NCBI GenBank assembly: GCA_023251095.1
Contig: JAHEZL010000007.1
Span: 15,136-79,135, forward strand
Length of the DNA: 64,000 nt
Direction: 5' to 3'
Source: Flavobacteriales bacterium
Lineage (GTDB): Bacteria; Bacteroidota; Bacteroidia; Flavobacteriales_C; GCA-002722245
Shown: in pieces, positions 4,873-64,000 of the stretch
Numbering within the stretch: the stretch's first letter is position 1
Layout: each line of letters begins with the position of its first letter
Notes under the pieces: model-generated
The model's database searches: none
The model's input: only the letters and a program-made list of their open reading frames with translations
Told to the model about the DNA's origin: nothing
Position numbers and translations under genes: made by a program

Positions 4873-6108
4873 ATGAGAAAGATATTGTTATGCTTGTCGG
4901 CAATTGCCTTGAATGTTTCTGTTAATGCACAATGGACCGGAACTAATCCAATAACAACCACCAGTGCCGTTGGTATTGGAACTACAACTCCTGTTGCCGG
5001 TAATATATTGCAATTAGAAGGAGGGCATTTGGCTATGTACGGCGGTTATATTCTTCCTTATGCAGGAAATTCAACAGTTCTGTTCCGCTCTGTGAATAAT
5101 AATTTTCCTAATTATTGGCTCCCTGAAAATTTAAATACTTACCGTCAATTTGAAATCGCACATGTTAGTCCAAATGGAGTAGATGTTGCCAACAGAAGAG
5201 GGTTCTTAAATCTAGCGGCAAATCAATATATTCAAATGAATGTCAATGGTTTTGATAAAATGAAAGTGGAGGAAACGGGGGTGTCGTTTAATGTAGCTCC
5301 AATCAATTCCTGGGCATCCAATGATGCTTTGATATTCCGTTCAATAAATAACAATTTCAATGGTGTTGTAACACCTCAATTTGAAATTAAACATGTTGAT
5401 CCTAATGGAGTAGAGCTTGCCAACAGAAGGGGTTTTTTGAATATAAAGGCAGATGCCGGAGTATTAAATTTAATGAGTAATCAAACGATTGTCATGTTTA
5501 CCAATGGTGCGCAAAGAATGGCTGTTGATGTAAATGGTAATGTGGGAATTGGACAATCAACGCCGGCTGCTAAGTTAGATGTTAATGGAACAGTAAGACT
5601 TGCTATACCGGGAGCGCAAGCGAGTTATGTATTGACATCATCCAATACAAGTGGAGATGCTACATGGCAGCCAATTTCTTCTTCTCAGTGGACAACAAGT
5701 GGTTCAAATATTACTTATTCAACAGGAGGGAATGTAGGAATAGGAACCAATAATTTTAGCACTCAGGCTACTACTCCTACTAATTCAAGTCAAAACAATT
5801 ATTATAAGTTGGCTGTTAATGGTTCTGTTCGTGCCAAAGAAGTTATGGTAGAATTAAATTGGGCTGATTATGTGTTTTCTAAGGAATATCAACTGAAATC
5901 ATTAAAAGAGGTTGAGCAATATATTAATCAGAATGGACATTTGCCGGGTGTTCCATCTGCTAAAGTTGTGGAAAATCAACAAGTGGGTTTGGGGGAATTG
6001 GCAAAAATTCAACAAGAAAAAATAGAAGAATTGACCCTTTATATTATAGCGTTGAGCAAACAATTAGAAACTCAACAAAAACAGATTGAAATTTTATCTA
6101 CAAAATAA
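4873..6108 (+). CDS. Secreted repeat protein with a tail-fibre-like C-terminal domain and a terminal coiled coil (A1).
   Basis: The listed ORF begins at 4795, but the signal peptide MRKILLCLSAIALNVSVNAQ starts at the ATG at 4873. Internal ~90-aa repeats contain ELANRRGFLN. The C-terminus reads AKEVMVELNWADYVF..LKSL.EVEQYINQNGHLPGVPSA, followed by a coiled coil. It is a paralog of 10361..12232. Confidence 0.5.
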   Translation: MRKILLCLSAIALNVSVNAQWTGTNPITTTSAVGIGTTTPVAGNILQLEGGHLAMYGGYILPYAGNSTVLFRSVNNNFPNYWLPENLNTYRQFEIAHVSPNGVDVANRRGFLNLAANQYIQMNVNGFDKMKVEETGVSFNVAPINSWASNDALIFRSINNNFNGVVTPQFEIKHVDPNGVELANRRGFLNIKADAGVLNLMSNQTIVMFTNGAQRMAVDVNGNVGIGQSTPAAKLDVNGTVRLAIPGAQASYVLTSSNTSGDATWQPISSSQWTTSGSNITYSTGGNVGIGTNNFSTQATTPTNSSQNNYYKLAVNGSVRAKEVMVELNWADYVFSKEYQLKSLKEVEQYINQNGHLPGVPSAKVVENQQVGLGELAKIQQEKIEELTLYIIALSKQLETQQKQIEILSTK

Positions 6109-6138
6109 GTATTGTAATAAAATATAAATCGTGATTTT

Positions 6139-7854
6139 ATGAAAAAAAGTACAATAATTTTGTTTGTCTTTTTCCTTATTGGAATAAGCAAAAGCGCATC
6201 GGCGACTTGGACGATAGATTTTAGTATGACAGATGGTCCTTCGTCAATCCAATTAAGCTGGGTCATTGATTATGCCTGGTATAATTTTGCAACTTTAGAA
6301 AACGGAAAACTTGAAAAAAGAGATGTTACAATAAATTCAGAGTGGGAAATGTATTCCATGTTAGTACTTGATAAACATCATTATCCGGCAGCAAGTCAAA
6401 ATTTCACCGATAATAATGTAATTGCGGGCCATGAGTATGAATACAAAGTTATTTATATATGGCAGGGCGATGTGCACGAGGATGTGGAGCATTTTGGGCG
6501 AATACGACATAGTGTTCCTTCTGTTCCAATTTATGATCCAAATTCATGGCAATTAATTTATCAGGAAGATTTTTCAGGAACATCTCTAGATCCTTCAAAA
6601 TGGTATGTAACCAATAATTATGATTTTTGGGGGAATCCAGATAAAGAAGATCATCATAGACCATATGTAAATACTAACAGACCTCAAAATTTTGAAGTTA
6701 GTAACGGTACTATGAAAATAACCGCTCGTCAGGAAGACTACACTTGTCCTAGCAATGATGCTTATTATTGTGGATATAAAGGTTCATCTGAACCTTATCA
6801 TTACACAACTGCACTTATTGAAACAGACTGTGAGAAATATAAATATGTTTATGCTGAGGCATTGATTAAAGTTCCTTTTAATACTGCAGGCGGTAGAGGT
6901 TTATGGCCGTCATTCTGGACTTTTAGAGCGGAAAACCGTGTGCCTGGTCCTAATGATGCGGGTGAAATTGATATTTTTGAAATGGACCAAGTTCCAAATA
7001 ATCCAGGTGATCAGTGGCTACCTACCAATGTGCATTTGGCATATGGAGATAATGCTCCTGAATGGCAGCAAACAGTGAATATAGGTCCGCATACAGGAAA
7101 TATATGGGTAAAATATGGAATAATGTGGGATGAAAATGTTATTAGATGGTATGTAAATGATGTTTTATATAGAGAAATTTCTAATCCAGGGGTTAATGAT
7201 GCTGAAAGATTTATTTTTAATATAGCTATCAGGGAAAATCCCGATAATTACATTTTTCCGGCTACCATGGAAGTGGATTATTTTAAGGTGTATGGAAAAA
7301 AAGTAAGCATGAATAATTACACTGTTCAGGTAGGAGAAATAAAAAATCAGTACTCCAGTTACAGCATTGATGTTGCCGGAAATGCAAATAATTATATTGT
7401 TGATGCCAATACTTCGGCTCATGGCACTTTAGATCTCTATGCAGAAAATAAAATAAAATTAAATCCAGGTTTTCATGCAAAATTGGGTAGTTCTTTTCAT
7501 GCGGAAATTAATGATGGATCAGAAAGTTATTGTAATCATGCCAATGGTAGTAATTCATATAAAAAAGATGATGATAATTCAGTTGCTAAAGAAAATAAAT
7601 CTGATAAAAAGATTTCAGAAACTGTTTATGGCATTTTCCCCAATCCCAGTAATGGATCTTTTCAAATTAATACTTCACCCGATCAGATTGGATCAAGTAT
7701 CAAAATTAATGATGTAACCGGACGGTTGATTTATAGCGGATTACTTAATGACATCTCTCAGAAATTAGAGTTGGATTTTCTTCCTTCAGGAATATATATT
7801 ATCAATCTGCAAAAAGCGGATCAAGTCTATACTCAAAAACTGATGATTAAGTAA
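6139..7854 (+). CDS. T9SS-secreted GH16-family glycoside hydrolase (beta-glucanase/laminarinase-like) with an N-terminal FN3-like domain and a C-terminal Por sorting domain (B1).
   Basis: There is a signal peptide. The GEIDIFEM motif matches the GH16 E-x-D-x-x-E catalytic motif. The C-terminus (FPNPSNGSFQIN...GIYIINLQ...KLMIK) looks like a T9SS CTD. Confidence 0.65.
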   Translation: MKKSTIILFVFFLIGISKSASATWTIDFSMTDGPSSIQLSWVIDYAWYNFATLENGKLEKRDVTINSEWEMYSMLVLDKHHYPAASQNFTDNNVIAGHEYEYKVIYIWQGDVHEDVEHFGRIRHSVPSVPIYDPNSWQLIYQEDFSGTSLDPSKWYVTNNYDFWGNPDKEDHHRPYVNTNRPQNFEVSNGTMKITARQEDYTCPSNDAYYCGYKGSSEPYHYTTALIETDCEKYKYVYAEALIKVPFNTAGGRGLWPSFWTFRAENRVPGPNDAGEIDIFEMDQVPNNPGDQWLPTNVHLAYGDNAPEWQQTVNIGPHTGNIWVKYGIMWDENVIRWYVNDVLYREISNPGVNDAERFIFNIAIRENPDNYIFPATMEVDYFKVYGKKVSMNNYTVQVGEIKNQYSSYSIDVAGNANNYIVDANTSAHGTLDLYAENKIKLNPGFHAKLGSSFHAEINDGSESYCNHANGSNSYKKDDDNSVAKENKSDKKISETVYGIFPNPSNGSFQINTSPDQIGSSIKINDVTGRLIYSGLLNDISQKLELDFLPSGIYIINLQKADQVYTQKLMIK

Positions 7855-7880
7855 AAAGTTTGTTTTTTTTAATATTAAAT

Positions 7881-7900
7881 CTCCGGTTTTTAACCGGGGA
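7881..7900. terminator. Bidirectional intrinsic terminator hairpin between B1 (+) and the LytTR regulator (-).
   Basis: The hairpin CCGGTT-ttt-AACCGG is flanked by an A-tract upstream and T8 downstream. Confidence 0.55.
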
Positions 7901-7906
7901 TTTTTT

Positions 7907-8659
7907 TTATTCTCCAATTGCAAACTGACTCAAAAAATCATCCTTCCTTCTTCTGGCCACGGCGATTTTTGCGCCGTTTTTCATCACCGCAAAACCACTG
8001 TGTTTTTCATACGATTTTACATGATCGAAATTAATCAGATGTGTTTTGTGAACCCTGAAAAATCTGCTGTCCTTTAGTAGCGTTTCGTATTCCTTTATGG
8101 TTTTGCAAACCAATACAGAAGATTCATCCATGAAAATGAATTTAGTGTAGTTGCCATCTGCTTCGCAGCGGGTAATTTCGTTGATGTTTACAAATTTATA
8201 TCCGCTCGAATCAGGCAATGCAATCTGATGTAAAGTATCGGTTTTAATATTTTGAATAAGACTGTTTATTTTTTTGTTTTCCAGTGAAGTATTGTTTTGC
8301 AAAACAATTTTTTCAAGTGCTTTTTCAACCGCAGTTTTTAATTCAGAAGGATCTATCGGTTTTAAAATATAATCAATCGCAGAAAATTTAAAGGCCTTTA
8401 CTGCAAATTCATCAAAGGCTGTAGTGAAGATGAGTTTGAACTGAATGTTTTCCAGTTTTTCAAAAACAGAAAAACTATTTTCATCTTCCAGCTTTACATC
8501 AGAAAAAACAATTTGAGGGTTATGCGTTTGAATGGCTTTAATCGCCTGCTCTACATTGGTTGCGTGCGCCACAATTTTTATTTCGGGAAATAACGCATTT
8601 AATAAAGATTTTAAATAATCATGAGCCGGCATTTGATCTTCAATGATGATTGCATTCAT
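7907..8659 (-). CDS. LytTR-family response regulator (REC domain plus LytTR DNA-binding domain).
   Basis: An N-terminal receiver domain (IIEDQ...FSDVKLED) and a C-terminal LytTR domain (...FFRVHKTHLINFDHV...) are present. It lies immediately downstream of HK2 on the same strand, consistent with one operon. Confidence 0.85.
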   Translation of the reverse strand: MNAIIIEDQMPAHDYLKSLLNALFPEIKIVAHATNVEQAIKAIQTHNPQIVFSDVKLEDENSFSVFEKLENIQFKLIFTTAFDEFAVKAFKFSAIDYILKPIDPSELKTAVEKALEKIVLQNNTSLENKKINSLIQNIKTDTLHQIALPDSSGYKFVNINEITRCEADGNYTKFIFMDESSVLVCKTIKEYETLLKDSRFFRVHKTHLINFDHVKSYEKHSGFAVMKNGAKIAVARRRKDDFLSQFAIGE

Positions 8660-8661
8660 AT

Positions 8662-9897
8662 TTAAAAGGTTTTTTCGTAAGAAGTAATTAAAGATACTTT
8701 GGTCCCCGCCGGCTGTCCGTTTTTGGCAAATAAATCCATAATTCTGATACTGATATTATCATTTTTATGGAGGGTTTTAATTCTGTTTTCAGTGATGTCC
8801 ATACCCATCGATTTTCTTTTGCTTTCTTTTTTTAATGCTGCCGCTGCCTTTCTGCCAATGCCATTGTCTTCAATTTCAATGGCTAAATATTCCTCGGATT
8901 GAGGACGTATGCGGATGCAAAGTTTATGTTCGTCATTGTTTTGAAAGGCATGTATCAGCACATTTTCCACATAAGGCTGAATGATAAAAGCGGGAATTTG
9001 TATGTTTTCGGTTTCCAGTTCCGAATCAATTTCCATAACAAAAGAAAAGTTTTTCGACATGCTGTGTTGCAGGTCGAGATAGGAGGTCAGGAATGTTTTT
9101 TCTTCTTCTACACTATGGTACAGCTCGTCGGATTTTTCAAGGTTGAAGCGCAATAGATTTGAAAACTTTACGATGTGCTCATGAGCCTCCTCGTTTTTTT
9201 TGGCGTAGGTTAAATTGGCAATGGATGAAAGTGCATTAAAAATAAAATGAGGATTGATTTTTAAGCGCAGGTTTTTTTGTAACAATTCATTTTTCTTTTT
9301 TTCAATTTGTAAGGTTTTCGAAAAGTTTTTATAACGAGCTCTTAAAATAGCATGGTGGCCGTAAATACAGATGGTGAGCATGGTCACCTGATGAATTAAA
9401 AGGAAGGGCATATTTTTAGTGGGACTTCCAACCGGACTGAAATAAATGTTATTAAAAAGATAAATGATGTTGATGATGATAAGCGTTGCCAATCCGTAAG
9501 GTCGCGATGAAGGCATAAATACGGTAAAAGCAATTTCAACGTGAATTAAATAGATGACATGGTCATTCGCGCCCCATCCTCCGTCTAAACCCGAATGAAT
9601 GGAGTTGGGCAGCATGATTAATACAACAGCCAGCAGATAAATCAGCTGGAACCATTTTTTGATTATTTCGGGAAAGAGGTAGGAAGTCACAATAGCTACC
9701 ACACAAAAGGCTATGGAAACGTATTTCAAATTGGTGATGGCGGCAGGCACTCCTCCGGTGCGGTAATCGCGCAGCGGCCCTGCTAAAAAAACCAGTACAA
9801 CAGCCGACAATAAAGTGATTCTGAAAGAAGGCAATATTTCTTCTCCGATATATCTCCAGTAGTCTTCCCGTTGTTTAGCAGATATAATCATTTGCAT
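8662..9897 (-). CDS. Membrane sensor histidine kinase of the LytS/YehU family (HK2), a paralog of HK1.
   Basis: It has the same NPHFIFNAL and HATPase blocks as HK1, with a diverged transmembrane sensing half. There is a 2-bp gap to the response regulator. Confidence 0.8.
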   Translation of the reverse strand: MQMIISAKQREDYWRYIGEEILPSFRITLLSAVVLVFLAGPLRDYRTGGVPAAITNLKYVSIAFCVVAIVTSYLFPEIIKKWFQLIYLLAVVLIMLPNSIHSGLDGGWGANDHVIYLIHVEIAFTVFMPSSRPYGLATLIIINIIYLFNNIYFSPVGSPTKNMPFLLIHQVTMLTICIYGHHAILRARYKNFSKTLQIEKKKNELLQKNLRLKINPHFIFNALSSIANLTYAKKNEEAHEHIVKFSNLLRFNLEKSDELYHSVEEEKTFLTSYLDLQHSMSKNFSFVMEIDSELETENIQIPAFIIQPYVENVLIHAFQNNDEHKLCIRIRPQSEEYLAIEIEDNGIGRKAAAALKKESKRKSMGMDITENRIKTLHKNDNISIRIMDLFAKNGQPAGTKVSLITSYEKTF

Positions 9898-55161: not shown

Positions 55162-56247
55162 ATGATCATCCCTTTTGCCCTGGCGCTTTTAATTTTTGCT
55201 GCCTATCAGTTTTTACAACACCCTAAGTTTGGAAAAATAGCTGTTGGTGACCGACTCGAAATCATTAAAAAATCTCCCCATTTTAAAAACGGAAAATTTG
55301 AAAACATCAACCACACTCCCGATATCGTTGAAGGAGTGAGTTATTTTAAAGTGTTTAAAGAATTCTTCTTTAATAAGAGTAAAAGAAACAGACCTTTGGG
55401 AATTCTGCCTTCCCAAAAAACCGATTTGCTGAAATTAAATCCCAATAAAAATGTTTTGGTGTGGTTTGGCCATTCTTCCTATTTCATGCAAATCGACGGC
55501 AAGAAAATTCTGGTGGATCCTGTGTTGAGCGGCAATGCTTCTCCCGTGAAGTTTACCACCAAAAGCTTTAAAGGAAGTGATGTTTATACTGCTGCCGATA
55601 TCCCTGAAATAGATTACCTTTTTATTTCTCATGATCATTGGGATCATCTCGATTATCAAACGATTACCGAACTTCAGCCAAAAATTAAAAAAGTAATTAC
55701 CGGTCTCGGAGTTGCTGCTCACCTGGAACACTGGGGCTACAATAGAAATATCATCATTGAAAAAGACTGGAATGAAGAAATTATTTTAGATCCCGGTTTT
55801 GTAGTCAACACCACTTCAGCCCGCCATTTTTCCGGACGCTTATATAAAAGAGGACAATCCATTTGGTCGGCTTTTGTTTTGAAAACACCTTCCATGAAAA
55901 TTTATCTCGGAGGCGATTCCGGCTACGACACTCATTTTGCTGAAATCGGGAGAAAACACGGACCTTTTGATCTCGCTATTTTAGAATGCGGACAATATCA
56001 TCCTTATTGGGGCTATATTCATATGCTGCCCCAACAGGTGATTCAGGCTGCGGAAGATTTGCAGGCCAAAAAGTTATTGCCGGTGCATTGGGCCAAATTT
56101 TCATTGTCGCTGCACGCCTGGGATGAACCTATCACCGAAGTGATAAAAGCCAATCATAAAAATATTCCTTTAATGCATCCTATGATAGGAGAGGAAGTAG
56201 ATTTAAAAAATCATACTTCCTCCGTTGCCTGGTGGGAAAATTTGTAA
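55162..56247 (+). CDS. MBL-fold metallo-hydrolase (NAPE-PLD/beta-lactamase-like).
   Basis: The motif FISHDHWDHLD is present. Confidence 0.7.
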   Translation: MIIPFALALLIFAAYQFLQHPKFGKIAVGDRLEIIKKSPHFKNGKFENINHTPDIVEGVSYFKVFKEFFFNKSKRNRPLGILPSQKTDLLKLNPNKNVLVWFGHSSYFMQIDGKKILVDPVLSGNASPVKFTTKSFKGSDVYTAADIPEIDYLFISHDHWDHLDYQTITELQPKIKKVITGLGVAAHLEHWGYNRNIIIEKDWNEEIILDPGFVVNTTSARHFSGRLYKRGQSIWSAFVLKTPSMKIYLGGDSGYDTHFAEIGRKHGPFDLAILECGQYHPYWGYIHMLPQQVIQAAEDLQAKKLLPVHWAKFSLSLHAWDEPITEVIKANHKNIPLMHPMIGEEVDLKNHTSSVAWWENL

Positions 56248-56918
56248 GCACTTGTAAAACGATTGGCTTCCATCATCAATTTAAAGTTGAGGACATCTTC
56301 ACGGATAATGCGCTCAAATAAATTGTTGAATAGTCGGGCAGCTACTGTTCCTATTTTTCCTGCAGGAGGCATGTAAACTATTTTCACATGAATTTCAGTT
56401 CCCCGCCCTATAGGTGCATCAAAGAAACTTACTCTTCCTGCATTGTGGATGGAGGCATCTTTATCGGATTGCCATGTGAGGAGTTTGCCTTCTATTTCGT
56501 CAACTATTGTCGCTTTCCATTCAAGATTTGGAAGTCCTTTGAAATTCGCTTTCCAGATAGAATGCCTGCTGTCCAGTTCTTTTACTTCTTCCAAGTGTTT
56601 CATAAAAAGAGGAAGGTTTTCTAACTTGCGCCATACCTGGTATACTTCATCCCGCGGACTATCAATATAAATTGATTCCTGGATTTGAACGGGCTTGTAT
56701 TTCAAATGCAGGGCTTCTGTGGCGTGACAATGACCACTGATTCCACGATACAATAAATAGGAGCCCGCCAAAGTGCTCAAAACAGAGCCTGTGGAGAGTT
56801 TGTTGAGGTTGTTCACGCCTGAGGCAAGCAAAGCTGTGCCAAAAATTCCGGACACCAAACGTTGTAATTCGCCAATGTTTACATTGGAGCTTTCGTTTTT
56901 TTCTTGAGTATTTTCCAT
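56211..56918 (-). CDS. SRPBCC (cyclase/dehydrase, START-like) domain protein with an N-terminal membrane segment.
   Basis: A DUF2892-like N-terminus (GIFGTALLASGV) is followed by a polyketide-cyclase-like fold. Confidence 0.4.
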   Translation of the reverse strand: MENTQEKNESSNVNIGELQRLVSGIFGTALLASGVNNLNKLSTGSVLSTLAGSYLLYRGISGHCHATEALHLKYKPVQIQESIYIDSPRDEVYQVWRKLENLPLFMKHLEEVKELDSRHSIWKANFKGLPNLEWKATIVDEIEGKLLTWQSDKDASIHNAGRVSFFDAPIGRGTEIHVKIVYMPPAGKIGTVAARLFNNLFERIIREDVLNFKLMMEANRFTSAYKFSHQATEEV

Positions 56919-57223
56919 GATAGTTTTTTCATTACTCAGCTAAAAAATCATGCTAGGGGGAAAAGAGGAAAAAATAACACAGCTTGAGGTTGATTATGAA
57001 AACTTGAGGTCGTAAATTGTGATACCCAAAAGGATTGCTTCATCCGTTGGCTGACGGATATCGCAATGACGGCCCCTGCTGTATATTTGATAAGGTTTTT
57101 ACCCTAATCATACCAATTAAGATTAACCCCCTCCAAACCGAATCTTATAACATTTTCACCTTAAACTATAACAACATGCCTTTTCAAAGCCCGTTAATTT
57201 GACATAACATTAAACCTACATAT

Positions 57224-57478
57224 ATGAACATAAAGAAAAATATAGCCCTCAGCGATTCAGGATTCGTTTTTGATCCGTCCAGCGGAGATTCATTTTCCAC
57301 CAATCCCATTGGTTTGGAAATTATTAAACTGTTGAAAAACGGGAAGTCGGCAGATGAAATTAAAAAGCACGTTACTTCGGCGTATATGATAGATGAAAAT
57401 TCTTTTGAAAAAGATTTTTATGATTTCGTAAACATGCTTCAGAAGTTGAAAATTGCTGAAGGAGAAGATAAGAAGTAG
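57224..57478 (+). CDS. PqqD-family (RiPP-recognition-element-like) small protein.
   Basis: The protein is 84 aa. The segment FSTNPIGLEIIKLLKNGKSADEIKKHVTSAYMIDE..FEKDFYDFVNMLQKLKI follows the PqqD pattern. Confidence 0.5.
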   Translation: MNIKKNIALSDSGFVFDPSSGDSFSTNPIGLEIIKLLKNGKSADEIKKHVTSAYMIDENSFEKDFYDFVNMLQKLKIAEGEDKK

Positions 57479-57499: not shown

Positions 57500-58549
57500 A
57501 TGAAAAAGAAAAAATTAACCATTGCTGTCACAGGTTTGAACGCCATTGACAGTCCGGGACCGGGAGTTCCGGTAATTCGCGCCCTGCGTGAGAGCAAGTA
57601 CTTTGATGTGCGCATCATCGGACTTTCCTATGAAGCGCTGGAGCCGGGTATATATATGCACGACTTGGTAGATAAAACTTATCAGATTCCTTTTCCATCT
57701 ACAGGAATTGATAGTTTGCTCACGCGTTTGCAATACATCAATGATCAGGAAAACATTGATTTGATCATTCCGAATTTTGATGCTGAGTTGTTCAGCTTTA
57801 TTAAACTGGTGGATCATCTGGAAAAGAAAATGAACATTAAAGTTTTCGTTCCTACGGTTGAACAGTTTGAAGAGCGTCACAAAGTCAACTTAGATGAGTT
57901 TGGAAAAAAACACAAAATAAAAGTTCCTTACAGCAAAATGATTTTCAGTACGGTTGAAATTCCTGCGCTGAAAGATCAGTTCACTTATCCGCTGGTGGTG
58001 AAAGGAAAATTCTATGATGCTTCGGTGGCTTATACACCTGAACAAGCGGCCAGTTATTTCAATAAAATCAGTGCGAAATGGGGCTTGCCGATTATCATTC
58101 AGCAATTTGTTCACGGACAGGAAGTAAATGTTACCGCCCTCGGTGATGGTAAAGGCAATACGATAGGTGCAGTGCCAATGCGTAAAACTTACATCACAGA
58201 TAAAGGAAAGGCCTGGGCCGGAATTTCTATCTCTGATGAGAAGCTGATGAGCATGACTAAAAAAATGATCAAGTCGAGTAAATGGCGTGGAGGTTTAGAA
58301 TTGGAAATTATTAAAACCGCCAACGACGACTATTATCTTTTAGAAATCAATCCGCGTTTTCCTGCCTGGGTTTATTTCGCGGTTGGTTGCGGACAAAATC
58401 ATCCGGAAGCCCTGGTGCGGATAGCTATGGGAGAAGACGTTAAGCCTTTCAAGAAATACGATGTCGGAAAAATGTTCGTCCGTTATTCTTTCGACATGAT
58501 AGTGGATTTAAAAGAATTTGAAAAAATATCAACCCTTGGGGAACTCTAG
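57500..58549 (+). CDS. ATP-grasp domain ligase.
   Basis: The segment YYLLEINPRFPAWV is ATP-grasp-like. The fold is typical at 349 aa. Confidence 0.65.
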   Translation: MKKKKLTIAVTGLNAIDSPGPGVPVIRALRESKYFDVRIIGLSYEALEPGIYMHDLVDKTYQIPFPSTGIDSLLTRLQYINDQENIDLIIPNFDAELFSFIKLVDHLEKKMNIKVFVPTVEQFEERHKVNLDEFGKKHKIKVPYSKMIFSTVEIPALKDQFTYPLVVKGKFYDASVAYTPEQAASYFNKISAKWGLPIIIQQFVHGQEVNVTALGDGKGNTIGAVPMRKTYITDKGKAWAGISISDEKLMSMTKKMIKSSKWRGGLELEIIKTANDDYYLLEINPRFPAWVYFAVGCGQNHPEALVRIAMGEDVKPFKKYDVGKMFVRYSFDMIVDLKEFEKISTLGEL

Positions 58550-58592: not shown

Positions 58593-59951
58593 ATGAAAAA
58601 GCTACAATATGAACGTCCGGTCATCACCCGCTTAAATACGGGAGTTACCAATAAATTCGGAACAAAAACAGCATTTACTCCGGTTACGCATGTAGATGGA
58701 AATGCAGTAAAAACTTTGATTGCAAATTATGGATCACCACTGTTTGTGATATCGGAACAAACCATTCGCAAAACTTTTAAAGATGCGAACAGAGCCTTCA
58801 CCACGCGTTATCCTAAGGTGCAATTTGCGTGGTCGTATAAAACAAATTACATCAACGCAGTGTGTAATGTATTTCATCAGGAAGGCTCATGGGCCGAGGT
58901 GGTATCGGGTTTTGAATATCACAAAGCATTGAACAACGATGTGCCTGGAAGTAAAATTATTTTCAACGGTCCGGATAAAACCGAAGCCGATTTACGCCTG
59001 GCGATTGAAAACAATTCATTGATTCACATCGATCATTTGGATGAGTTGTATCTCATTAAAGAACTGGCGGTGGAGATGAATAAAAAACCAAGAGTGGCCA
59101 TTCGTGTGAATATGGATACGGGCGTTTATCCTATCTGGGATCGTTTTGGATTCAACTATGAAAACGGACAAGCCTGGGATGCGATCAACAAAATTATGCT
59201 GAACGATAAAATGGAACTGGTGGGCTTACATGCACACATCGGAACTTTCATGTTGTCGCCAAATGCTTATGGAATCGCAGCTTCAAAGCTTTCTGAATTG
59301 GCTTTGAGTATCAAGAAAAAATATAAAAAGAACATTCAGTATTTAGATTTAGGCGGAGGTTTCGCATCAAAAAATACCTTGAAAGGCTCGTATTTACAGG
59401 GTGTTGATACATCACCAACTTTTGATCAATATGCTGAAGCCATTTCAACTGCGATATTGAATGCCGGATTTATAGAAGATGAATTGCCTTTGTTGATTTT
59501 GGAATCGGGCAGATCACTGATAGATGAAGCAGGAACATTATTAGGAACTGTGATTTCCAACAAACGCTTATCCGACGGGCGACGCGCAACGATCATGGAT
59601 TTTGGTGTAAACATTTTATTCACTTCTTTCTGGTACGATCACAAGATCAGTCCGGCGCAGGATTTCAGTCAGTACACTGAAGATGCGGTATTGTACGGTC
59701 CCTTGTGTATGAACATCGACGTCATCAGAGAAAATTGCACGCTGCCTCCGTTAAAGCGCGATGACCACGTGGTGGTGCACACTGTAGGGGCTTACAACAT
59801 GACGCAATGGATGCAATTTATTGCGATGCGTCCGGCGGTGATCATGATTGATATGGATGAAAAACCACACATCATCAGAAGAAGAGAAACATTGAGCACT
59901 ATAGAAAGTGTGGAGATGATGCCTGAATATTTGAAAAAATTTAAATTGTAA
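58593..59951 (+). CDS. PLP-dependent decarboxylase of the Orn/DAP/Arg family (alanine-racemase fold type III).
   Basis: The PLP-lysine region reads FAWSYKTNY. The motifs YLDLGGGF and the EPGR-like ESGRSL are present. Confidence 0.7.
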   Translation: MKKLQYERPVITRLNTGVTNKFGTKTAFTPVTHVDGNAVKTLIANYGSPLFVISEQTIRKTFKDANRAFTTRYPKVQFAWSYKTNYINAVCNVFHQEGSWAEVVSGFEYHKALNNDVPGSKIIFNGPDKTEADLRLAIENNSLIHIDHLDELYLIKELAVEMNKKPRVAIRVNMDTGVYPIWDRFGFNYENGQAWDAINKIMLNDKMELVGLHAHIGTFMLSPNAYGIAASKLSELALSIKKKYKKNIQYLDLGGGFASKNTLKGSYLQGVDTSPTFDQYAEAISTAILNAGFIEDELPLLILESGRSLIDEAGTLLGTVISNKRLSDGRRATIMDFGVNILFTSFWYDHKISPAQDFSQYTEDAVLYGPLCMNIDVIRENCTLPPLKRDDHVVVHTVGAYNMTQWMQFIAMRPAVIMIDMDEKPHIIRRRETLSTIESVEMMPEYLKKFKL

Positions 59952-60058: not shown

Positions 60059-62236
60059 ATGAAATTCTACCGGGACAGTATCGTCAATAGCTATGCGCAA
60101 ATATTTTTCTCTAACCATAAATGGTTTGCGTATTTATTGCTGATCGCCAGTTTTATTGATCCTTATTTAGGTTTGAGCGGATTGATCGCTGCCACTGCTT
60201 CCGTGTTTTTTGCGAAGTGGATGGGCTTCAATAAAGAAACTATTCGCACAGGAATGTATTCTTATAATTCCATTCTGGTAGGATTTACGATCGCTGTTTT
60301 TTATAAAATGTCCTTGCCTTTTTTCGGATTGTTATTGCTGGCTTCTTTATTAACGATGTTGCTTACCGTGTGCTTGTCGGCTTTTGTTTCATCCTATAAA
60401 ATTCCTTTTTTGAGTTTGCCTTTCATGTTTTCGGTGTGGGCGATATTGAAAAGTGTAGGAGGTCATGGGTTTAAAGCGGTAGAGTGGAGTGAACGGGGAA
60501 TATATAGTATCAACGAATACTATAGTTTCTGGGGGCCTGAAATGGGCGAATTCATGAAGAATTTAGCCGAAGTGAAATTCCCATTATTGATTGATGTTTA
60601 TCTGAAATCACTGGGCGCTATTTTCTTTCAATACAATTTGCTCACGGGAATTTTAATTGCGGTGGGCTTGTTGATTTATTCGCGGATTGCTTTCTCTTTG
60701 TCGGTGCTTGGATTTTTAACCGGATACTTTTTTGTTCAGTATTTCCATGGAAATATGGATGAGTTGGAATACAGTTATATCGGTTTCAATTACATTTTAA
60801 CTTCCATTGCTTTGGGCGGATTTTTCATGGTGCCGTCTTGGAGATCCTACGTGTTGGTGATGGTGTGCGCGGCTTTAATTGCCTTAAGCATAAGTTCATT
60901 GGGTAAATTCTTTTCGGTTTTTGGCTTACCGATTTATTCGCTTCCTTTTTCTTTGATAGTGATGCTGGTGATTTATGCACTCAACAATCGTTATTCATTA
61001 AACGGTTTGAATATGGTGCAGTACCAGCTTTATTCTCCCGAGAAAAATTTATACACTTTCCGTAACCGCTTGGAACGATTTAAAAACGATACTTACTTCC
61101 ATATTCATTTGCCTTATTTCGGAGAATGGTTTGTATCGCAGGCCCACGAAGGAAAAATAACACATAAAGAAGACTGGCGTTTTGCTTTCGATTTTGTGAT
61201 TGCCGATGAAACACAAAAAACTTTTAAATCGCCGGGCGAACAACTCACCGATTTTTATTGTTACAATTTACCTGTGTTGTCGCCTGCTGCAGGCTATGTA
61301 GTCACATTGGTAGATGGTATTGAAGACAATAATATCGGCGATGTGAATTTGGGAGAAAACTGGGGAAATACGATTGTGATTAAGCACGCCGATTTTTTAT
61401 ACAGCAAAATCTCGCACATCAAACAAGGATCATTTAAAGTGAAGTTGGGCGATTATGTAAAAAAAGGAGAAGTGCTGGCAAGCTGTGGTAATTCAGGAAG
61501 ATCTCCCGAACCGCACATCCATTTTCAAATGCAGTCGACACCTTTTGTGGGGGCCAAAACCTTAAAATATCCTATTGCTTATTACGTATCAAAACTGAAC
61601 GGTCAGTATAAATTTCATTCGTTTGATTATCCGCTGGAAGGTCAAACAGTTTTCAGAATAAACACTACTGCCTTACTCAAAAACAATTTTGATTTTGTAC
61701 CCGGTATGACCATGGATTTTGCAGTGGATACCAACGGTGAAAAAACCAATGTGAAGTGGGAAGTATTTGTGGATGCGGCCAATCAGGCGTACATCTATTG
61801 TCACGAAACTGAATCGGTGGCCTATTTTGTGAACAATGAAACGCTGCATTATTTCACCGATTTTAAAGGCGATAAAACATCATTGCTCTACTATTTTTAT
61901 TTAGGAGCACATAAAATTTTACTGGGTTACTATGATCAGTTAGAGGTGAAGGATATTTTACCTATTGATGGCTTCTTCACCGGATTTGCTAAAGTAATAC
62001 AAGATTTTGTGGCGCCTTTCGGTATTTATTTGAAAACGCAATACACCGCAAAATTTATGGAGATCGACGATTTGCTGAGTCCCACCAAAATAAAAATATC
62101 TTCTTCCGCACAAGTTAAAATCGGTAGCAGCGTGCGAAGAAAAATTGATTTTGATTTTGTAATAAATCACAGTAAGAATTTCACAATGACTATTAACGAA
62201 GGAAAAGTATGCAAGCACGTTATTCGTATAGCTTAA
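60059..62236 (+). CDS. Fusion of a urea-transporter-family (UT) membrane domain to a C-terminal M23 (LytM-type) metallopeptidase domain.
   Basis: The N-terminus (YAQIFFSN...YSYNSILVGFTI...IPFLSLPFMFSVW) aligns with bacterial UT signatures. The C-terminus (GNTIVIKHADFLYSKISHIK...GNSGRSPEPHIHFQMQ) carries the M23 motifs. Confidence 0.6.
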   Translation: MKFYRDSIVNSYAQIFFSNHKWFAYLLLIASFIDPYLGLSGLIAATASVFFAKWMGFNKETIRTGMYSYNSILVGFTIAVFYKMSLPFFGLLLLASLLTMLLTVCLSAFVSSYKIPFLSLPFMFSVWAILKSVGGHGFKAVEWSERGIYSINEYYSFWGPEMGEFMKNLAEVKFPLLIDVYLKSLGAIFFQYNLLTGILIAVGLLIYSRIAFSLSVLGFLTGYFFVQYFHGNMDELEYSYIGFNYILTSIALGGFFMVPSWRSYVLVMVCAALIALSISSLGKFFSVFGLPIYSLPFSLIVMLVIYALNNRYSLNGLNMVQYQLYSPEKNLYTFRNRLERFKNDTYFHIHLPYFGEWFVSQAHEGKITHKEDWRFAFDFVIADETQKTFKSPGEQLTDFYCYNLPVLSPAAGYVVTLVDGIEDNNIGDVNLGENWGNTIVIKHADFLYSKISHIKQGSFKVKLGDYVKKGEVLASCGNSGRSPEPHIHFQMQSTPFVGAKTLKYPIAYYVSKLNGQYKFHSFDYPLEGQTVFRINTTALLKNNFDFVPGMTMDFAVDTNGEKTNVKWEVFVDAANQAYIYCHETESVAYFVNNETLHYFTDFKGDKTSLLYYFYLGAHKILLGYYDQLEVKDILPIDGFFTGFAKVIQDFVAPFGIYLKTQYTAKFMEIDDLLSPTKIKISSSAQVKIGSSVRRKIDFDFVINHSKNFTMTINEGKVCKHVIRIA

Positions 62237-63423
62237 TATTTTCTTTTTTGCTTTTGTGCGCTGTGAATAGCTATTCGCAGCAAACATTAAACACGCAGGT
62301 GGTAGCAAAAAGATCATATGGAATGTATCTCAAGCAGCAATGGCCCGAGCTGATTGCCTATGGTGATTCGGTTTTGAAATTGGGATATGATTATTATTAC
62401 ATCCGCATGCGCATGGGCATTGCCTATTTTGAATTAAAAAAATATCGTTTGGCTGAGCCTCATTTTAAAAAGGCGATTGAGTTCAATGCTCAGGAAGATT
62501 TGGCGTATGAATATTTGTATTACATCTACGTTTATACCGACAGGTTTGAGGAAAGCAGAAAACTTACTAAAAAATTCAGTGCAACTTTAAAACAAAAATT
62601 ACAAAGCGACAGTTTGCCCAAAGTAGAGTATAGATTTGCTGAAGCAGGGGAAAAAATAAGTAATAATACGGAAACGCCCAATGCTACTTATGTTCAGCTC
62701 GGATTGGGTCATAATATTGCAAATAACTTTTCGCTTTTACACGCTTACACTTATTACGGACAAGGAAATAATGAGTGGAAAATAAATCAAAATCAGTATT
62801 ACATCAGAGCGAATTTTCCCATGAAAAATAATTTTATGTTGTCGGGAGCTTTTCATTTTGTAGAAAGAAGTACGGCTCTGTTTTCTAATACAGGCAATTT
62901 TACGGGCTCGACAAAACCAAGCTCTGTGCTCTTTACTTACAATTATGTAGAATCAATTTTACTCAGAAAAAGTTTTGAGAGATTTGATGCTTCACTGGGA
63001 TCAACGGTTTTATGGCTGGATAGTGTTTTTCAATTTCAACACAATGCAATGATTAATTACTTTCCGCTTGGAAATAATAAATTAGGGATAGGTGCAAATG
63101 TTTATTTGTATACAAGGGATGCGTATTCCAGTGTGAATTTTGTTTTCGTGCCCTTTGTTTCGTTTAAACCTCTTCAGAAACTTTCGTTGTTTGGAAGTTA
63201 TTTACTGAATTCAGGTTACAACAACATAGCAGAATGGAATGGATATGTAGTCAATAATTCCCCTGATTTAACAACAGGAAAGTTAACCCTTAATGCCGAT
63301 TGGACCATCAATAAAAAATGGGATTTATACGCCACTTATCAATACGAAAACAAACAATTATTTGCCACAACAACAGAATATCAATTCAATTCAATTTTTG
63401 TAGGAATAAAATTTAAACCTTAA
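62209..63423 (+). CDS. Hypothetical secreted protein, possibly an outer-membrane protein.
   Basis: It has a signal peptide, a TPR-like N-terminal segment and a beta-rich remainder. Confidence 0.3.
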   Translation: MQARYSYSLIFSFLLLCAVNSYSQQTLNTQVVAKRSYGMYLKQQWPELIAYGDSVLKLGYDYYYIRMRMGIAYFELKKYRLAEPHFKKAIEFNAQEDLAYEYLYYIYVYTDRFEESRKLTKKFSATLKQKLQSDSLPKVEYRFAEAGEKISNNTETPNATYVQLGLGHNIANNFSLLHAYTYYGQGNNEWKINQNQYYIRANFPMKNNFMLSGAFHFVERSTALFSNTGNFTGSTKPSSVLFTYNYVESILLRKSFERFDASLGSTVLWLDSVFQFQHNAMINYFPLGNNKLGIGANVYLYTRDAYSSVNFVFVPFVSFKPLQKLSLFGSYLLNSGYNNIAEWNGYVVNNSPDLTTGKLTLNADWTINKKWDLYATYQYENKQLFATTTEYQFNSIFVGIKFKP

Positions 63424-63443: not shown

Positions 63444-64000
63444 ATGAAAATCGTATATAAATTATTATTGAGTGCAATGTTTATCGGAGGGATGAATACT
63501 GTGCGTGCGCAAGATAACTCTTTACAAGATGTTTTTACGCAAAGTTATTATTCGGAAAAGCAGGCAAATTACACCTTGGCGATTTCGGCAATGAAAAAAG
63601 TTTATGATGCTCAATCCTATGAAATTAATTTGCGTTTGGGATGGTTGAGTTATGAGGCGGGAATGTACAAGGAGTCGCTCAATTATTATCAGATTGCAGT
63701 TGCGTTGATGCCTTATTCCATTGAAGCAAAATTAGGATTGGTGTATCCTGCAGCGGCATTGGGAAATATGACGCAGGTGACCGATGCCTATAAAAAAATA
63801 TTGGAAATTGATCCACAAAACACCACTGCCAATTACCGCATGGGATATATTTTTTACGACAAAAAAGATTACCAGTCGGCTTTCCCTTATTTTGAAAAAG
63901 TAGTGAATTTATATCCTTTTAGTTATGACGGATTGTTGATGTTTGCGTGGACCAATTATCAATTGGGAAAAACGCGTGAAGCACATGTGTTGTTCAATAA
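63444..64000 (+). CDS. Secreted TPR-repeat protein. The 3' end runs off the window.
   Basis: It has a signal peptide and TPR-like repeats. Confidence 0.45.
   Translation, partial: MKIVYKLLLSAMFIGGMNTVRAQDNSLQDVFTQSYYSEKQANYTLAISAMKKVYDAQSYEINLRLGWLSYEAGMYKESLNYYQIAVALMPYSIEAKLGLVYPAAALGNMTQVTDAYKKILEIDPQNTTANYRMGYIFYDKKDYQSAFPYFEKVVNLYPFSYDGLLMFAWTNYQLGKTREAHVLFN

Follow-up and report, generated by a model that had tools for sequence, protein, structure and literature searches.

A urea-transporter-fold channel fused to a predicted cytoplasm-facing M23 peptidase module in a conserved six-gene operon of Bacteroidota

Introduction

The genes considered here lie in a window of 64,000 nucleotides (positions 15,136 to 79,135 of the forward strand of contig JAHEZL010000007.1, assembly GCA_023251095.1) from a Flavobacteriales bacterium, and positions are those of this window unless a related locus is named by an L number. 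Towards the end of the window, six genes encode, in this order, a PqqD-family protein, an ATP-grasp ligase, a pyridoxal-phosphate (PLP)-dependent decarboxylase, a protein in which a channel domain of the urea transporter (UT) family is fused to an M23 metallopeptidase module, and two secreted TPR proteins (Table 1). The fourth of them, the UT-M23 fusion, is the subject of this work. M23 proteins are usually taken as cell-wall enzymes and UT proteins as urea channels, so that such a fusion is automatically labelled 'urea transporter' or 'murein DD-endopeptidase'. What is described below suggests that neither label describes the job of this protein.

The bare combination of UT and M23 domains is already known from databases and from a 2026 survey of UT evolution, which names 'M23 peptidase domains (bacteria)' among the C-terminal partners of UT domains, with one model and no function proposed (PMC12998343). 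Literature searches on UT and M23 together with ATP-grasp and PqqD, on cytoplasmic M23 proteins, and on PRK06524 returned no functional study, just this listing of domain combinations. What is new here is the evidence for an M23 module that faces the cytoplasm, within a wider cytoplasm-facing M23 clade with a non-canonical His/Asp pair, and the evidence tying the fusion firmly to an operon of six genes, in which analogues can stand in for the ligase and the decarboxylase.

Organization and conservation of the operon

The six genes lie on the same strand and are tightly packed, overlapping or abutting, with gene 5 overlapping the end of the fusion gene by 28 nt. The genes for PqqD, ATP-grasp and decarboxylase stand directly upstream of the fusion in 42 of the 46 genome loci with enough upstream DNA. 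When the search is started from the ATP-grasp gene in metagenomes, the UT-M23 gene comes next in 41 of 44 loci, and the PqqD gene precedes the ATP-grasp gene, adjoining or overlapping it, in 68 of 69. Even the most divergent family members sampled keep all six genes. The enzymes are more conserved than the fusion itself, with identities of 54-66% in Chryseobacterium, compared with 40% for the fusion.

Downstream of the fusion, gene 5 is found in 51 loci, including loci that lack genes 1-3, and gene 6 belongs to a family conserved in 48 loci. The product of gene 5 has TPR matches in the PDB, strands of alternating hydrophobicity and a composition rich in N, Y, F and G, and its C-terminal part is predicted to form an outer-membrane barrel. 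In two loci (L017 and L040) the fusion and both TPR genes are kept and genes 1-3 are absent.

Two variant loci, L039 and L044, have fusion proteins that are 40% identical to the one described here. Genes 1-3 are absent from both, and a block of unrelated enzymes is instead found divergently upstream of the fusion gene: an ATP-grasp protein of the PRK06524 type (NCBIfam, 724 bits for a cut-off of 684), a fold-I Orn/Lys/Arg decarboxylase of about 920 aa, and a VOC-like protein of 145 aa. Since this non-homologous swap keeps both classes of activity, it provides good evidence that a ligase plus an amino-acid decarboxylase is the functional partner of the fusion.

Some irregularities were also seen in this gene order. 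The three exceptions in the metagenome search are operons that end after the decarboxylase gene. In L074 and L075 this gene is followed by a gene for a Uma2-like endonuclease (L074 3465-4061, minus strand), and in L141 by a gene for a 950-aa fused restriction-methylase-like protein (5896-8748, plus strand), identified by reading the translations; these loci suggest the insertion of mobile or defence genes into the operon. A swapped export module, in which the three enzyme genes would be followed by a different transporter, was looked for and not found, the three exceptions being these insertions. In L039 the two TPR genes stand in swapped order. An anti-phage defence system was considered too and discarded, as five of the operon proteins gave no PADLOC match.

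Table 1. Features of the operon, of the fusion gene and of related loci
Feature	Position	Strand	Basis or remark
Upstream motif CCGAATCTTATAACATTTTCACCTTAAACTATAACAAC, 38 nt, internal direct repeat	57138..57175	+	conserved in aligned upstream regions; candidate regulator site
Gene 1, 84-aa PqqD-family protein (RRE-type peptide-binding chaperone)	57224..57478	+	Pfam PqqD, E 4.3e-8, 33.8 bits (cut-off 23.4)
Gene 2, 349-aa ATP-grasp ligase (carbamoyl-phosphate-synthase-like/ATPgrasp_Ter type)	57500..58549	+	Pfam ATPgrasp_Ter, ATP-grasp_3
Gene 3, 452-aa PLP-dependent decarboxylase, Orn/DAP/Arg family	58593..59951	+	Pfam Orn_Arg_deC_N, Orn_DAP_Arg_deC
Gene 4, UT-M23 fusion	60059..62236	+	Pfam UT and M23
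Gene 4 domain 1, UT-fold channel, aa 1-310	60059..60988	+	Pfam, PDB sequence match, model fold, pore mapping, charge bias
Gene 4 linker, aa 311-350, K/R-rich, amphipathic helix aa 327-345	60989..61108	+	hydropathy, sequence, model, charge counts
Gene 4 domain 2, M23/LytM-fold metallopeptidase module, predicted cytoplasmic, aa 351-500	61109..61558	+	Pfam, profile alignment, fold, invariant residues
Gene 4 domain 3, beta-rich, family-specific, aa 501-725 and stop codon	61559..62236	+	confident model; no family match
Gene 5, 404-aa secreted protein: signal peptide, N-terminal TPR, C-terminal beta-rich porin-like part	62209..63423	+	TPR_1, weak DUF2490
Gene 6, secreted TPR protein (~205 aa in relatives), runs past window end	63444..64000	+	translation, comparison with L001; TPR_2/TPR_1, E 1e-13
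Variant enzyme block in relatives, next to fusion gene	L039 1763-6579; L044 3108-7804	-	
Upstream regulator region in a relative	L144 4384-5130	+	regulator varying between lineages

Domain architecture of the fusion protein

The fusion gene is an uninterrupted open reading frame (ORF) that starts with ATG and encodes 725 aa. Pfam assigns aa 6-307 to the UT family (PF03253; E 1.4e-61, 208.7 bits for a cut-off of 25), with a match over profile positions 2-290 of 292, that is, the whole UT domain, and aa 403-492 to Peptidase_M23 (PF01551; E 1.5e-13, 51.2 bits for a cut-off of 28.7). By sequence, the protein gives end-to-end alignments with the urea channel of Desulfovibrio (3k3f, E 5e-24) as well as with human UT-A and UT-B. 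The full UT fold extends over aa 6-309, the M23 module over about aa 350-500 and a third domain over about aa 500-725. An AlphaFold model of the fusion protein took 65 family members as input (pLDDT 85, pTM 0.72). In this predicted structure, the N-terminal domain superimposes on 3k3f, 3k3g and 3me1 with target-normalised TM-scores of 0.85-0.87, and the middle domain matches whole LytM/M23 domains (DipM, EnpA, lysostaphin) in Foldseek with target-normalised TM-scores of 0.6-0.7. The fusion of a UT-fold channel domain with an M23-fold module is real, far beyond chance.

These results bear on a preliminary description of the gene, made by reading the sequence. The UT-like N-terminal domain that it proposed is borne out by the Pfam match, the 3k3f alignment and the superposition; the strings it quoted are present, with YSYNSILVGFTI at aa 67-78, IPFLSLPFMFSVW at aa 115-127 and HIHFQ at aa 486-490; and the structure modelling it had recommended shows both the UT and the M23 fold. 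It placed the M23 part in the C-terminal ~130 aa, of which the family assignment stands by Pfam and fold, but the module lies further in, with 225 aa more behind it. This third domain, missed in that description, is previously undescribed. It is beta-rich in the model (pLDDT 87), has no match in Pfam or among PDB sequences, and gave nothing significant in Foldseek, where LolA/lipocalin-like matches were weak (E of at least 1.2e-3, TM about 0.3).

Distribution of the architecture

A channel-like domain fused to a peptidase had also been called unusual, a view that the domain co-occurrence search overturns. All 120 of the 120 best homologues carry both UT and M23 domains, with lengths of about 710-750 aa, a few fragments aside, and where the sources give them a name, it is 'urea transporter' or 'urea transporter/murein DD-endopeptidase MepM'. 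Searched with a profile of the C-terminal domain, 1.84 billion representatives yield 461 clusters at the 50% identity level. In the best 150 of these 461, full-length proteins measure about 690-750 aa and end in this domain; many of the shorter entries begin within it and therefore look like gene fragments. The genome loci with the fusion come nearly all from metagenome-assembled genomes (MAGs) of Bacteroidota, and include the cultured Chryseobacterium hispalense DSM 25574 and C. salviniae. By these sequence counts, the UT-M23 architecture is fixed across hundreds of Bacteroidota lineages.

Five loci with close homologues of the whole operon (L006, L020, L021, L022 and L036) come from MAGs whose records name Glaciecola, Bifidobacteriaceae or Ignavibacteria. 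Binning errors may account for these names, given the 43-63% identity to Bacteroidota proteins and the identical gene order; alternatively, the operon may reach the Ignavibacteria.

The channel domain and its pore

The residues lining the pore were mapped by pairwise alignment from the published list of filter residues of the Desulfovibrio channel (dvUT; PMC4357013) and counted in 65 family sequences. The inner site is kept, with Q14 in place of dvUT Q24 (64/65), L118 in place of L129, and Y or F in place of F80, and so are the central leucines of the filter. The centre and the outer end are altered. Instead of the pair of central (Sm) threonines typical of UTs, the fusion family has serines: T130 becomes S119 (S 53, A 6, G 4, T 2) and T294 becomes S294 (S 62, T 3). 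A polar Glu or Gln at both ends of the filter is also typical, and of these the inner Gln is kept and the outer Glu (dvUT E187, Gln in mammals) becomes A187, with Ala in 62 of the 65; the outer Leu becomes Y293, a Tyr in 62 sequences. The central Thr is needed for the flux of urea, water and ammonia, and its change to Val blocks flux (PMC12171576). Ser is smaller but keeps the hydroxyl of Thr, so that function may persist.

These positions are under stronger constraint than their surroundings, since the most frequent residue reaches a frequency of 0.85 at pore positions, compared with 0.63 in the remaining membrane domain (permutation p 1.5e-4). This argues that the pore is in use and that the UT domain is more than an anchor. 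The preliminary description had offered the membrane domain as an anchor, a regulator, or a coupler of small-molecule passage to cleavage: this conservation speaks against the role of mere anchor, and some coupling between passage and peptidase is plausible. By homology to the solved UTs, the fusion protein is probably a trimer. We describe the domain as a member of the UT family by fold and sequence, with a filter altered family-wide. It does not pass the NCBIfam equivalog for Yut (TIGR03441; 126.7 bits for a cut-off of 274.6), and there is no urease or urea-metabolism gene among the conserved neighbours of the fusion.

Position of the M23 module with respect to the membrane

In solved UTs, the inner site of the filter (Si) is intracellular and is formed from the first re-entrant helix, whereas the second forms the outer site (So). 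The two halves are connected by an external loop, the two UT domains of UT-A1 by an intracellular one, and the C-terminus is intracellular (PMC4357013; PMC12171576). An external loop between the halves and an intracellular linker in UT-A1 imply that both ends of the UT domain are inside the cell. The distribution of charge agrees with this in the fusion family, with a mean of 4.5 Lys and Arg in the 31 aa of the loops that are cytoplasmic by homology versus 0.4 in the 26 aa of the short periplasmic loops, a positive-inside ordering that holds in 65 of 65 sequences. The linker at aa 310-346 contains 6 Lys or Arg and forms an amphipathic helix in the model, and neither hydropathy nor the model gives a hydrophobic segment or membrane helix after aa 310.

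UT topology, charge bias and the lack of a helix past aa 310 together place the M23 and C-terminal domains in the cytoplasm. For the M23 module we consider this location very likely, from homology and charge bias. The extracytoplasmic location expected of a peptidoglycan endopeptidase is not what is predicted here, as the protein has neither a signal peptide nor a further membrane helix after the UT fold. The cell-wall endopeptidase that the preliminary description saw in the M23 part would thus be on the wrong side of the membrane from peptidoglycan, and the genetic context lends it no support either, since its operon partners are cytoplasmic enzymes of biosynthetic type and not cell-wall genes.

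The peptidase site and its relatives in Bacillota

Eight residues of the module are invariant in the 65 members of the fusion family: H369, D378, C401, H443, H453, C476, H486 and H488. A profile of the module aligns its second half to solved M23 enzymes, with H453 as the catalytic His of the Y-x-H-L motif and H486-x-H488 as the HxH motif, so that both the HxH and the upstream catalytic His of M23 enzymes are present, as H486-I-H488 and H453, in all 65 members and in the Bacillota relatives described below. The HMMER alignment did not cover the first half of the module. There, the HxxxD zinc-ligand motif of M23 enzymes is absent, and an invariant pair H369-x8-D378 is found instead; of the zinc-ligand motifs named in the preliminary description, HIHFQ is therefore present and the canonical HxxxD is not. 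LasA (M23A) also has a long His-to-Asp spacing. As a candidate for the canonical Asp, D398 was suggested by an hhalign comparison with a lysostaphin sequence, which aligned from F399; no His lies four residues before it, and since the Bacillota relatives have either N or D at this position, but do not vary at H369 and D378, it was rejected as a key ligand. The module thus probably has an intact metal site, in which the His/Asp pair is displaced.

A chance match in a genome scan (L057 5604-6437, plus strand) led to a family of proteins of about 280 aa in Bacillota (701 hits, in Moorella, Clostridium, Desulfosporosinus and others; sampled as P0121-P0240 and L058-L063), in which the same M23 module stands behind a short hydrophobic anchor. 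Invariant across both clades are H369, W373, A376, D378, F379, C401, H443, H453, C476-G-N-S-G and E-P-H-x-H, and the spacing from His to Asp is 8 residues in the fusions versus 11-12 in the Bacillota proteins. Given that H369, D378, H453, H486 and H488 are invariant in the Bacteroidota and Bacillota clades, the peptidase is likely active. The Bacillota proteins have 3.2 Lys and Arg before the anchor, 2.6 after it and fewer than 0.7 between, and from this inside-inside charge pattern the whole M23 clade may face the cytoplasm. The best match among the NCBIfam equivalogs for peptidoglycan hydrolases is Pgp3, with 45.3 bits for a cut-off of 300; the others reach 17-34 bits for cut-offs of 250-900, and none is passed.

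Two further observations concern this clade. The invariant cysteines C401 (61259-61261) and C476 (61484-61486) lie outside the classical M23 motifs; they could bind additional metal, act as a redox switch or form a disulfide. In three of five Bacillota contexts, the M23 gene lies directly 3' of a small XRE-type HTH_3 gene and a gene for an uncharacterised protein of ~100 aa, neighbours that hint at a regulator-cleaving protease; the HTH gene is not present in the other two.

The partner enzymes

The product of gene 1 looks, by sequence, like a standard peptide-binding RRE (RiPP recognition element, RiPPs being ribosomally synthesised and post-translationally modified peptides), with a lasso-peptide PqqD chaperone as its best NCBIfam match, below cut-off, and its place beside the ATP-grasp gene is that of RRE-dependent RiPP pathways. 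The ligase encoded by gene 2 has an NCBIfam match of the PRK12767 type below cut-off (E 3.6e-28), is 57-97% identical across loci, and has an invariant metal motif, E282-x-N284.

The decarboxylase encoded by gene 3 matches, below cut-off in both cases, the NCBIfam models for FslC (E 1.6e-70, 238 bits for a cut-off of 500) and LysA (E 2.6e-62). Among PDB entries, FslC (7kh2) comes first with E 2.6e-59, followed by diaminopimelate decarboxylases (1e-37 or weaker) and BtrK (1.8e-22). For FslC, ornithine is a substrate only once its side-chain amine carries an acyl group.

An ATP-grasp gene next to a PLP-dependent decarboxylase of the Orn/DAP/Arg family is also the arrangement found in the butirosin and closthioamide pathways. 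In these (BtrJ/BtrK and CtaD/CtaF, respectively), Glu or Asp is first loaded onto a carrier by the ATP-grasp enzyme; only in this attached form is it a substrate for the decarboxylase, after which the ATP-grasp enzyme can extend the product by another unit. In closthioamide biosynthesis the chain is transferred by CtaG, an enzyme of a protease family (PMC7183216).

Comparison with known systems

With the UT/SLC14 channels (dvUT 3K3F, Yut, UT-A and UT-B) the fusion shares the two inverted five-helix halves with re-entrant P helices, both pairs of NxxLxG and LPxx(T/S)xPF motifs, the inner-site Gln and most of the hydrophobic pore residues. It differs from them in the Ser/Ser/Ala/Tyr at the filter, in its ~415 aa of predicted cytoplasmic domains, and in its biosynthetic-type operon without urease. 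With the M23/LytM enzymes (LytM, lysostaphin, MepM, ShyA, DipM and Pgp3) it shares the fold, the HxH motif, the His of Y-x-H-L and the GNSG(R)xxxPHxHF block. Contrary to these enzymes, the module is predicted to lie on the cytoplasmic side and comes without signal peptide or cell-wall-binding domain; its His-to-Asp motif is H-x8-D (x11-12 in Bacillota), and it has two invariant Cys.

The enzyme genes resemble those of closthioamide (CtaD/CtaE/CtaF/CtaG) and butirosin (BtrI/BtrJ/BtrK) biosynthesis, which also combine an ATP-grasp enzyme, an Orn/DAP/Arg-family decarboxylase, a small partner protein and a protease-family enzyme (PMC7183216). Here, however, a PqqD-type chaperone takes the place of the phosphopantetheinyl carrier, the protease is of the M23 and not the papain-like type, gene 3 is closer to FslC and LysA than to BtrK, and the organisms are Bacteroidota rather than Firmicutes or Actinobacteria. 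The closest solved relative of gene 3 is the N-citrylornithine decarboxylase FslC (7KH2) of the rhizoferrin pathway, but the operon contains no synthetase of the type that makes siderophores independently of non-ribosomal peptide synthetases, no exporter of the major facilitator superfamily and no siderophore receptor.

Two export systems follow a comparable logic. The peptidase-containing ATP-binding cassette (ABC) exporters (PCATs) and the lasso-peptide B1/B2/C/D sets likewise bring together a PqqD/RRE chaperone, an ATP-dependent amide-forming enzyme and a peptidase joined to the membrane exit; just PqqD is homologous, the exit here is a passive narrow channel and not an ABC pump, and no precursor gene was found. 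In synthase-dependent polymer secretion, PgaA, BcsC, PelB and AlgK/AlgE act as outer-membrane exporters made of TPR and beta-barrel parts. With them, the operon shares a secreted protein with TPR and a beta-rich porin-like part, and a second TPR protein, beside an inner-membrane component. This is a resemblance of architecture alone, with no sequence match, a gene 5 that is much smaller, and a barrel that is predicted.

Proposed role of the fusion and its alternatives

The explanation that we consider best as a whole, and hold with some reserve, is that the fusion is a three-domain inner-membrane protein, consisting of a UT-fold channel, a cytoplasm-facing M23 zinc peptidase and a cytoplasmic beta-rich domain, and that it is the membrane component of the six-gene operon. 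That it works with the neighbouring enzymes rather than on peptidoglycan is, taken by itself, a likely conclusion. How it would do so can be put forward more tentatively, as a pathway that makes, trims and passes through a small amide or amine product, in which analogy alone speaks for the order of ligation and decarboxylation, for the substrate of the M23 module, for the direction of transport and for the kind of product. What the data themselves show are the identities of the domains, the operon with its conservation, the pore that is altered yet conserved, and the conservation of metal and catalytic residues. In this scheme, the ATP-grasp ligase, guided by PqqD, would link an amino acid to a partner, a peptide or an acid, by forming an amide bond. 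From the attached amino acid, the FslC/LysA-like decarboxylase would then strip the alpha-carboxylate, leaving an amine-ended amide compound; ligation is placed before decarboxylation because the characterised relatives partnered with ligases (FslC, BtrK and CtaF) act in that order. At the cytoplasmic mouth of the channel, the M23 module would cut an amide bond and thereby trim the product or free it from a peptide or a protecting partner. This small compound, bearing an amide, would leave through the UT pore, whose filter is altered with respect to urea channels, and would cross the periplasm and the outer membrane with the two secreted TPR proteins.

Several points weigh against this reading. 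The UT pore is very narrow, so that only a small or thread-like product could pass, and a passive channel can serve uptake equally. The canonical HxxxD is missing, and the role of H369 and D378 as metal ligands is deduced from conservation; the invariant C401 and C476 could form a disulfide, which would be better suited to the periplasm. In L017 and L040, which lack genes 1-3, the fusion still has the TPR genes beside it, making the envelope proteins its tightest link. As for what PqqD would bind, a clustering of the ORFs of 57 loci gave no conserved precursor-peptide ORF of at least 25 aa, as a RiPP pathway would have, outside the known genes within 8 kb. A precursor peptide upstream of gene 1 was likewise rejected, as the aligned region is promoter-like and has no coding pattern, shorter or distant genes being beyond this search. 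None of the six operon proteins matches a peptidyl or acyl carrier protein family, and tethering to a LysW-type carrier is unlikely because the C-terminus of the PqqD protein is unconserved.

Of the alternatives, the one that survives best is uptake followed by trapping, in which the TPR proteins and the UT pore would admit an external amide and the M23 module would hydrolyse it at the channel exit, keeping the gradient inward, as a fused version of a urea channel and urease, with the ligase and decarboxylase then converting the products. Urea channels are classically paired with a cytoplasmic hydrolase, as UreI and Yut are with urease. UT channels are passive and bidirectional, and a cytoplasmic M23 module tethered beside a pore with a conserved lining, with envelope TPR genes as the most faithful partners of the fusion, fits this idea as well. 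Yet a ligase, a decarboxylase and a peptide chaperone have a biosynthetic and not a catabolic signature, no further catabolic genes or binding protein are conserved nearby, and the non-orthologous replacement in L039 and L044 retains exactly the ligase and decarboxylase pair, so that we regard uptake as unlikely.

Quite unlikely, in our view, is an ordinary channel for urea, ammonia or water in which the M23 and C-terminal domains would be non-catalytic cytoplasmic modules for gating or docking. LytM domains are often non-catalytic, as in EnvC and NlpD, and here the UT signature motifs and most pore residues are kept, with Ser retaining the central hydroxyl. C-terminal domains of regulatory type are moreover common in UT fusions, and such a role has been proposed for the ankyrin and EF-hand fusions of other UTs (PMC12998343). 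This reading has to face the failed Yut equivalog, the Ala that replaces the outer Glu/Gln across the family, the lack of urease or urea-metabolism genes among the conserved neighbours, and invariant His and Asp residues of catalytic type, which would be unexpected in a degenerate LytM domain.

The HTH_3 genes that precede three of the five Bacillota relatives, themselves apparently cytoplasm-facing, could instead point to a sensor protease similar to BlaR1 or to the ImmA-type anti-repressor proteases, in which the UT domain would sense or admit a ligand and the M23 module would cleave a protein or peptide of the cytoplasm, for instance a regulator or a peptide bound to PqqD. The differing regulators beside the Bacteroidota operon (LytTR, AraC, hybrid kinase) would suit such a role. 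Nevertheless, no HTH gene occurs inside the Bacteroidota operon, two of the five Bacillota contexts have none, and the ligase, the decarboxylase, the TPR proteins and the conserved pore would be left unexplained, which makes this possibility very unlikely.

Least probable of all is the reading of the preliminary description, in which a channel-like membrane domain would anchor or regulate a periplasmic peptidoglycan endopeptidase of the M23 family and couple solute passage to cell-wall cleavage, since, even though M23 proteins are overwhelmingly peptidoglycan endopeptidases, the best NCBIfam and PDB matches are Pgp3, MepM, DipM, ShyA and lysostaphin, the Cys pair could form a disulfide and the partner TPR proteins are in the envelope, the predicted topology is cytoplasmic, with no signal peptide or extra membrane helix, the equivalog scores are 17-45 bits for cut-offs of 250-900, there is no canonical HxxxD, and the enzymes encoded with it in the operon are cytoplasmic.

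The release-and-export scheme that we prefer has a bolder version, which we give as a long shot: the product would be a thin linear amide chain, an oligomer or polymer of decarboxylated amino-acid units. It would be built by repeated ATP-grasp ligation and decarboxylation on a primer held by PqqD, in the way CtaD and CtaF act for beta-alanine in closthioamide, and would thread in single file through a urea-type pore adapted to binding amides and then through the TPR/beta-rich envelope proteins, much as polysaccharides pass through exporters of the PgaA/BcsC type, with the cytoplasmic M23 module priming, measuring or cutting the chain. If true, this would be a new kind of secretion machine, with the first cytoplasmic role for an M23 protein and the first non-urea role for a UT.

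Significance

If the cytoplasmic placement is true, there would be an M23 clade with intracellular substrates, extending to the ~700 Bacillota proteins, and a UT channel would have become part of a ligase-decarboxylase pathway that is spread among Bacteroidota of lakes, groundwater, soils and wastewater. This points to an unrecognised, probably abundant, small metabolite or surface product. As the cultured C. hispalense DSM 25574 and C. salviniae carry the operon, these ideas are directly testable.

Upstream DNA and neighbouring genes

Upstream of the pqqD-like gene, the block CCGAATCTTATAACATTTTCACCTTAAACTATAACAAC is conserved in several related loci whose flanking DNA is not, and it occurs once in the window, with 0 occurrences expected by chance. 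Between this block and the first gene, about 35 nt before the latter, stands a TAATTTG box. The two elements are candidates for a regulator-binding site and a Bacteroidota-type promoter element of the operon. A scan for promoters and terminators did no better than on shuffled sequence. A riboswitch or other RNA upstream was rejected, as Rfam gave no match at gathering thresholds in the whole window and only chance-level ones in 56800-57300 (E 0.9-2.3).

Further upstream, a gene for a hydrolase of the metallo-beta-lactamase fold (55162-56247, plus strand) and a convergent gene (56211-56918, minus strand), whose product joins a YgaP-like membrane domain to an SRPBCC/polyketide-cyclase-like domain, overlap by 37 nt at their 3' ends; neither is conserved beside the operon in related loci. 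The regulators found upstream in those loci differ by lineage, being an AraC-type regulator with a LytTR response regulator (L008 459-1899, plus strand), LytTR alone, or a hybrid histidine kinase, a variety that suggests signal-dependent control of the operon.

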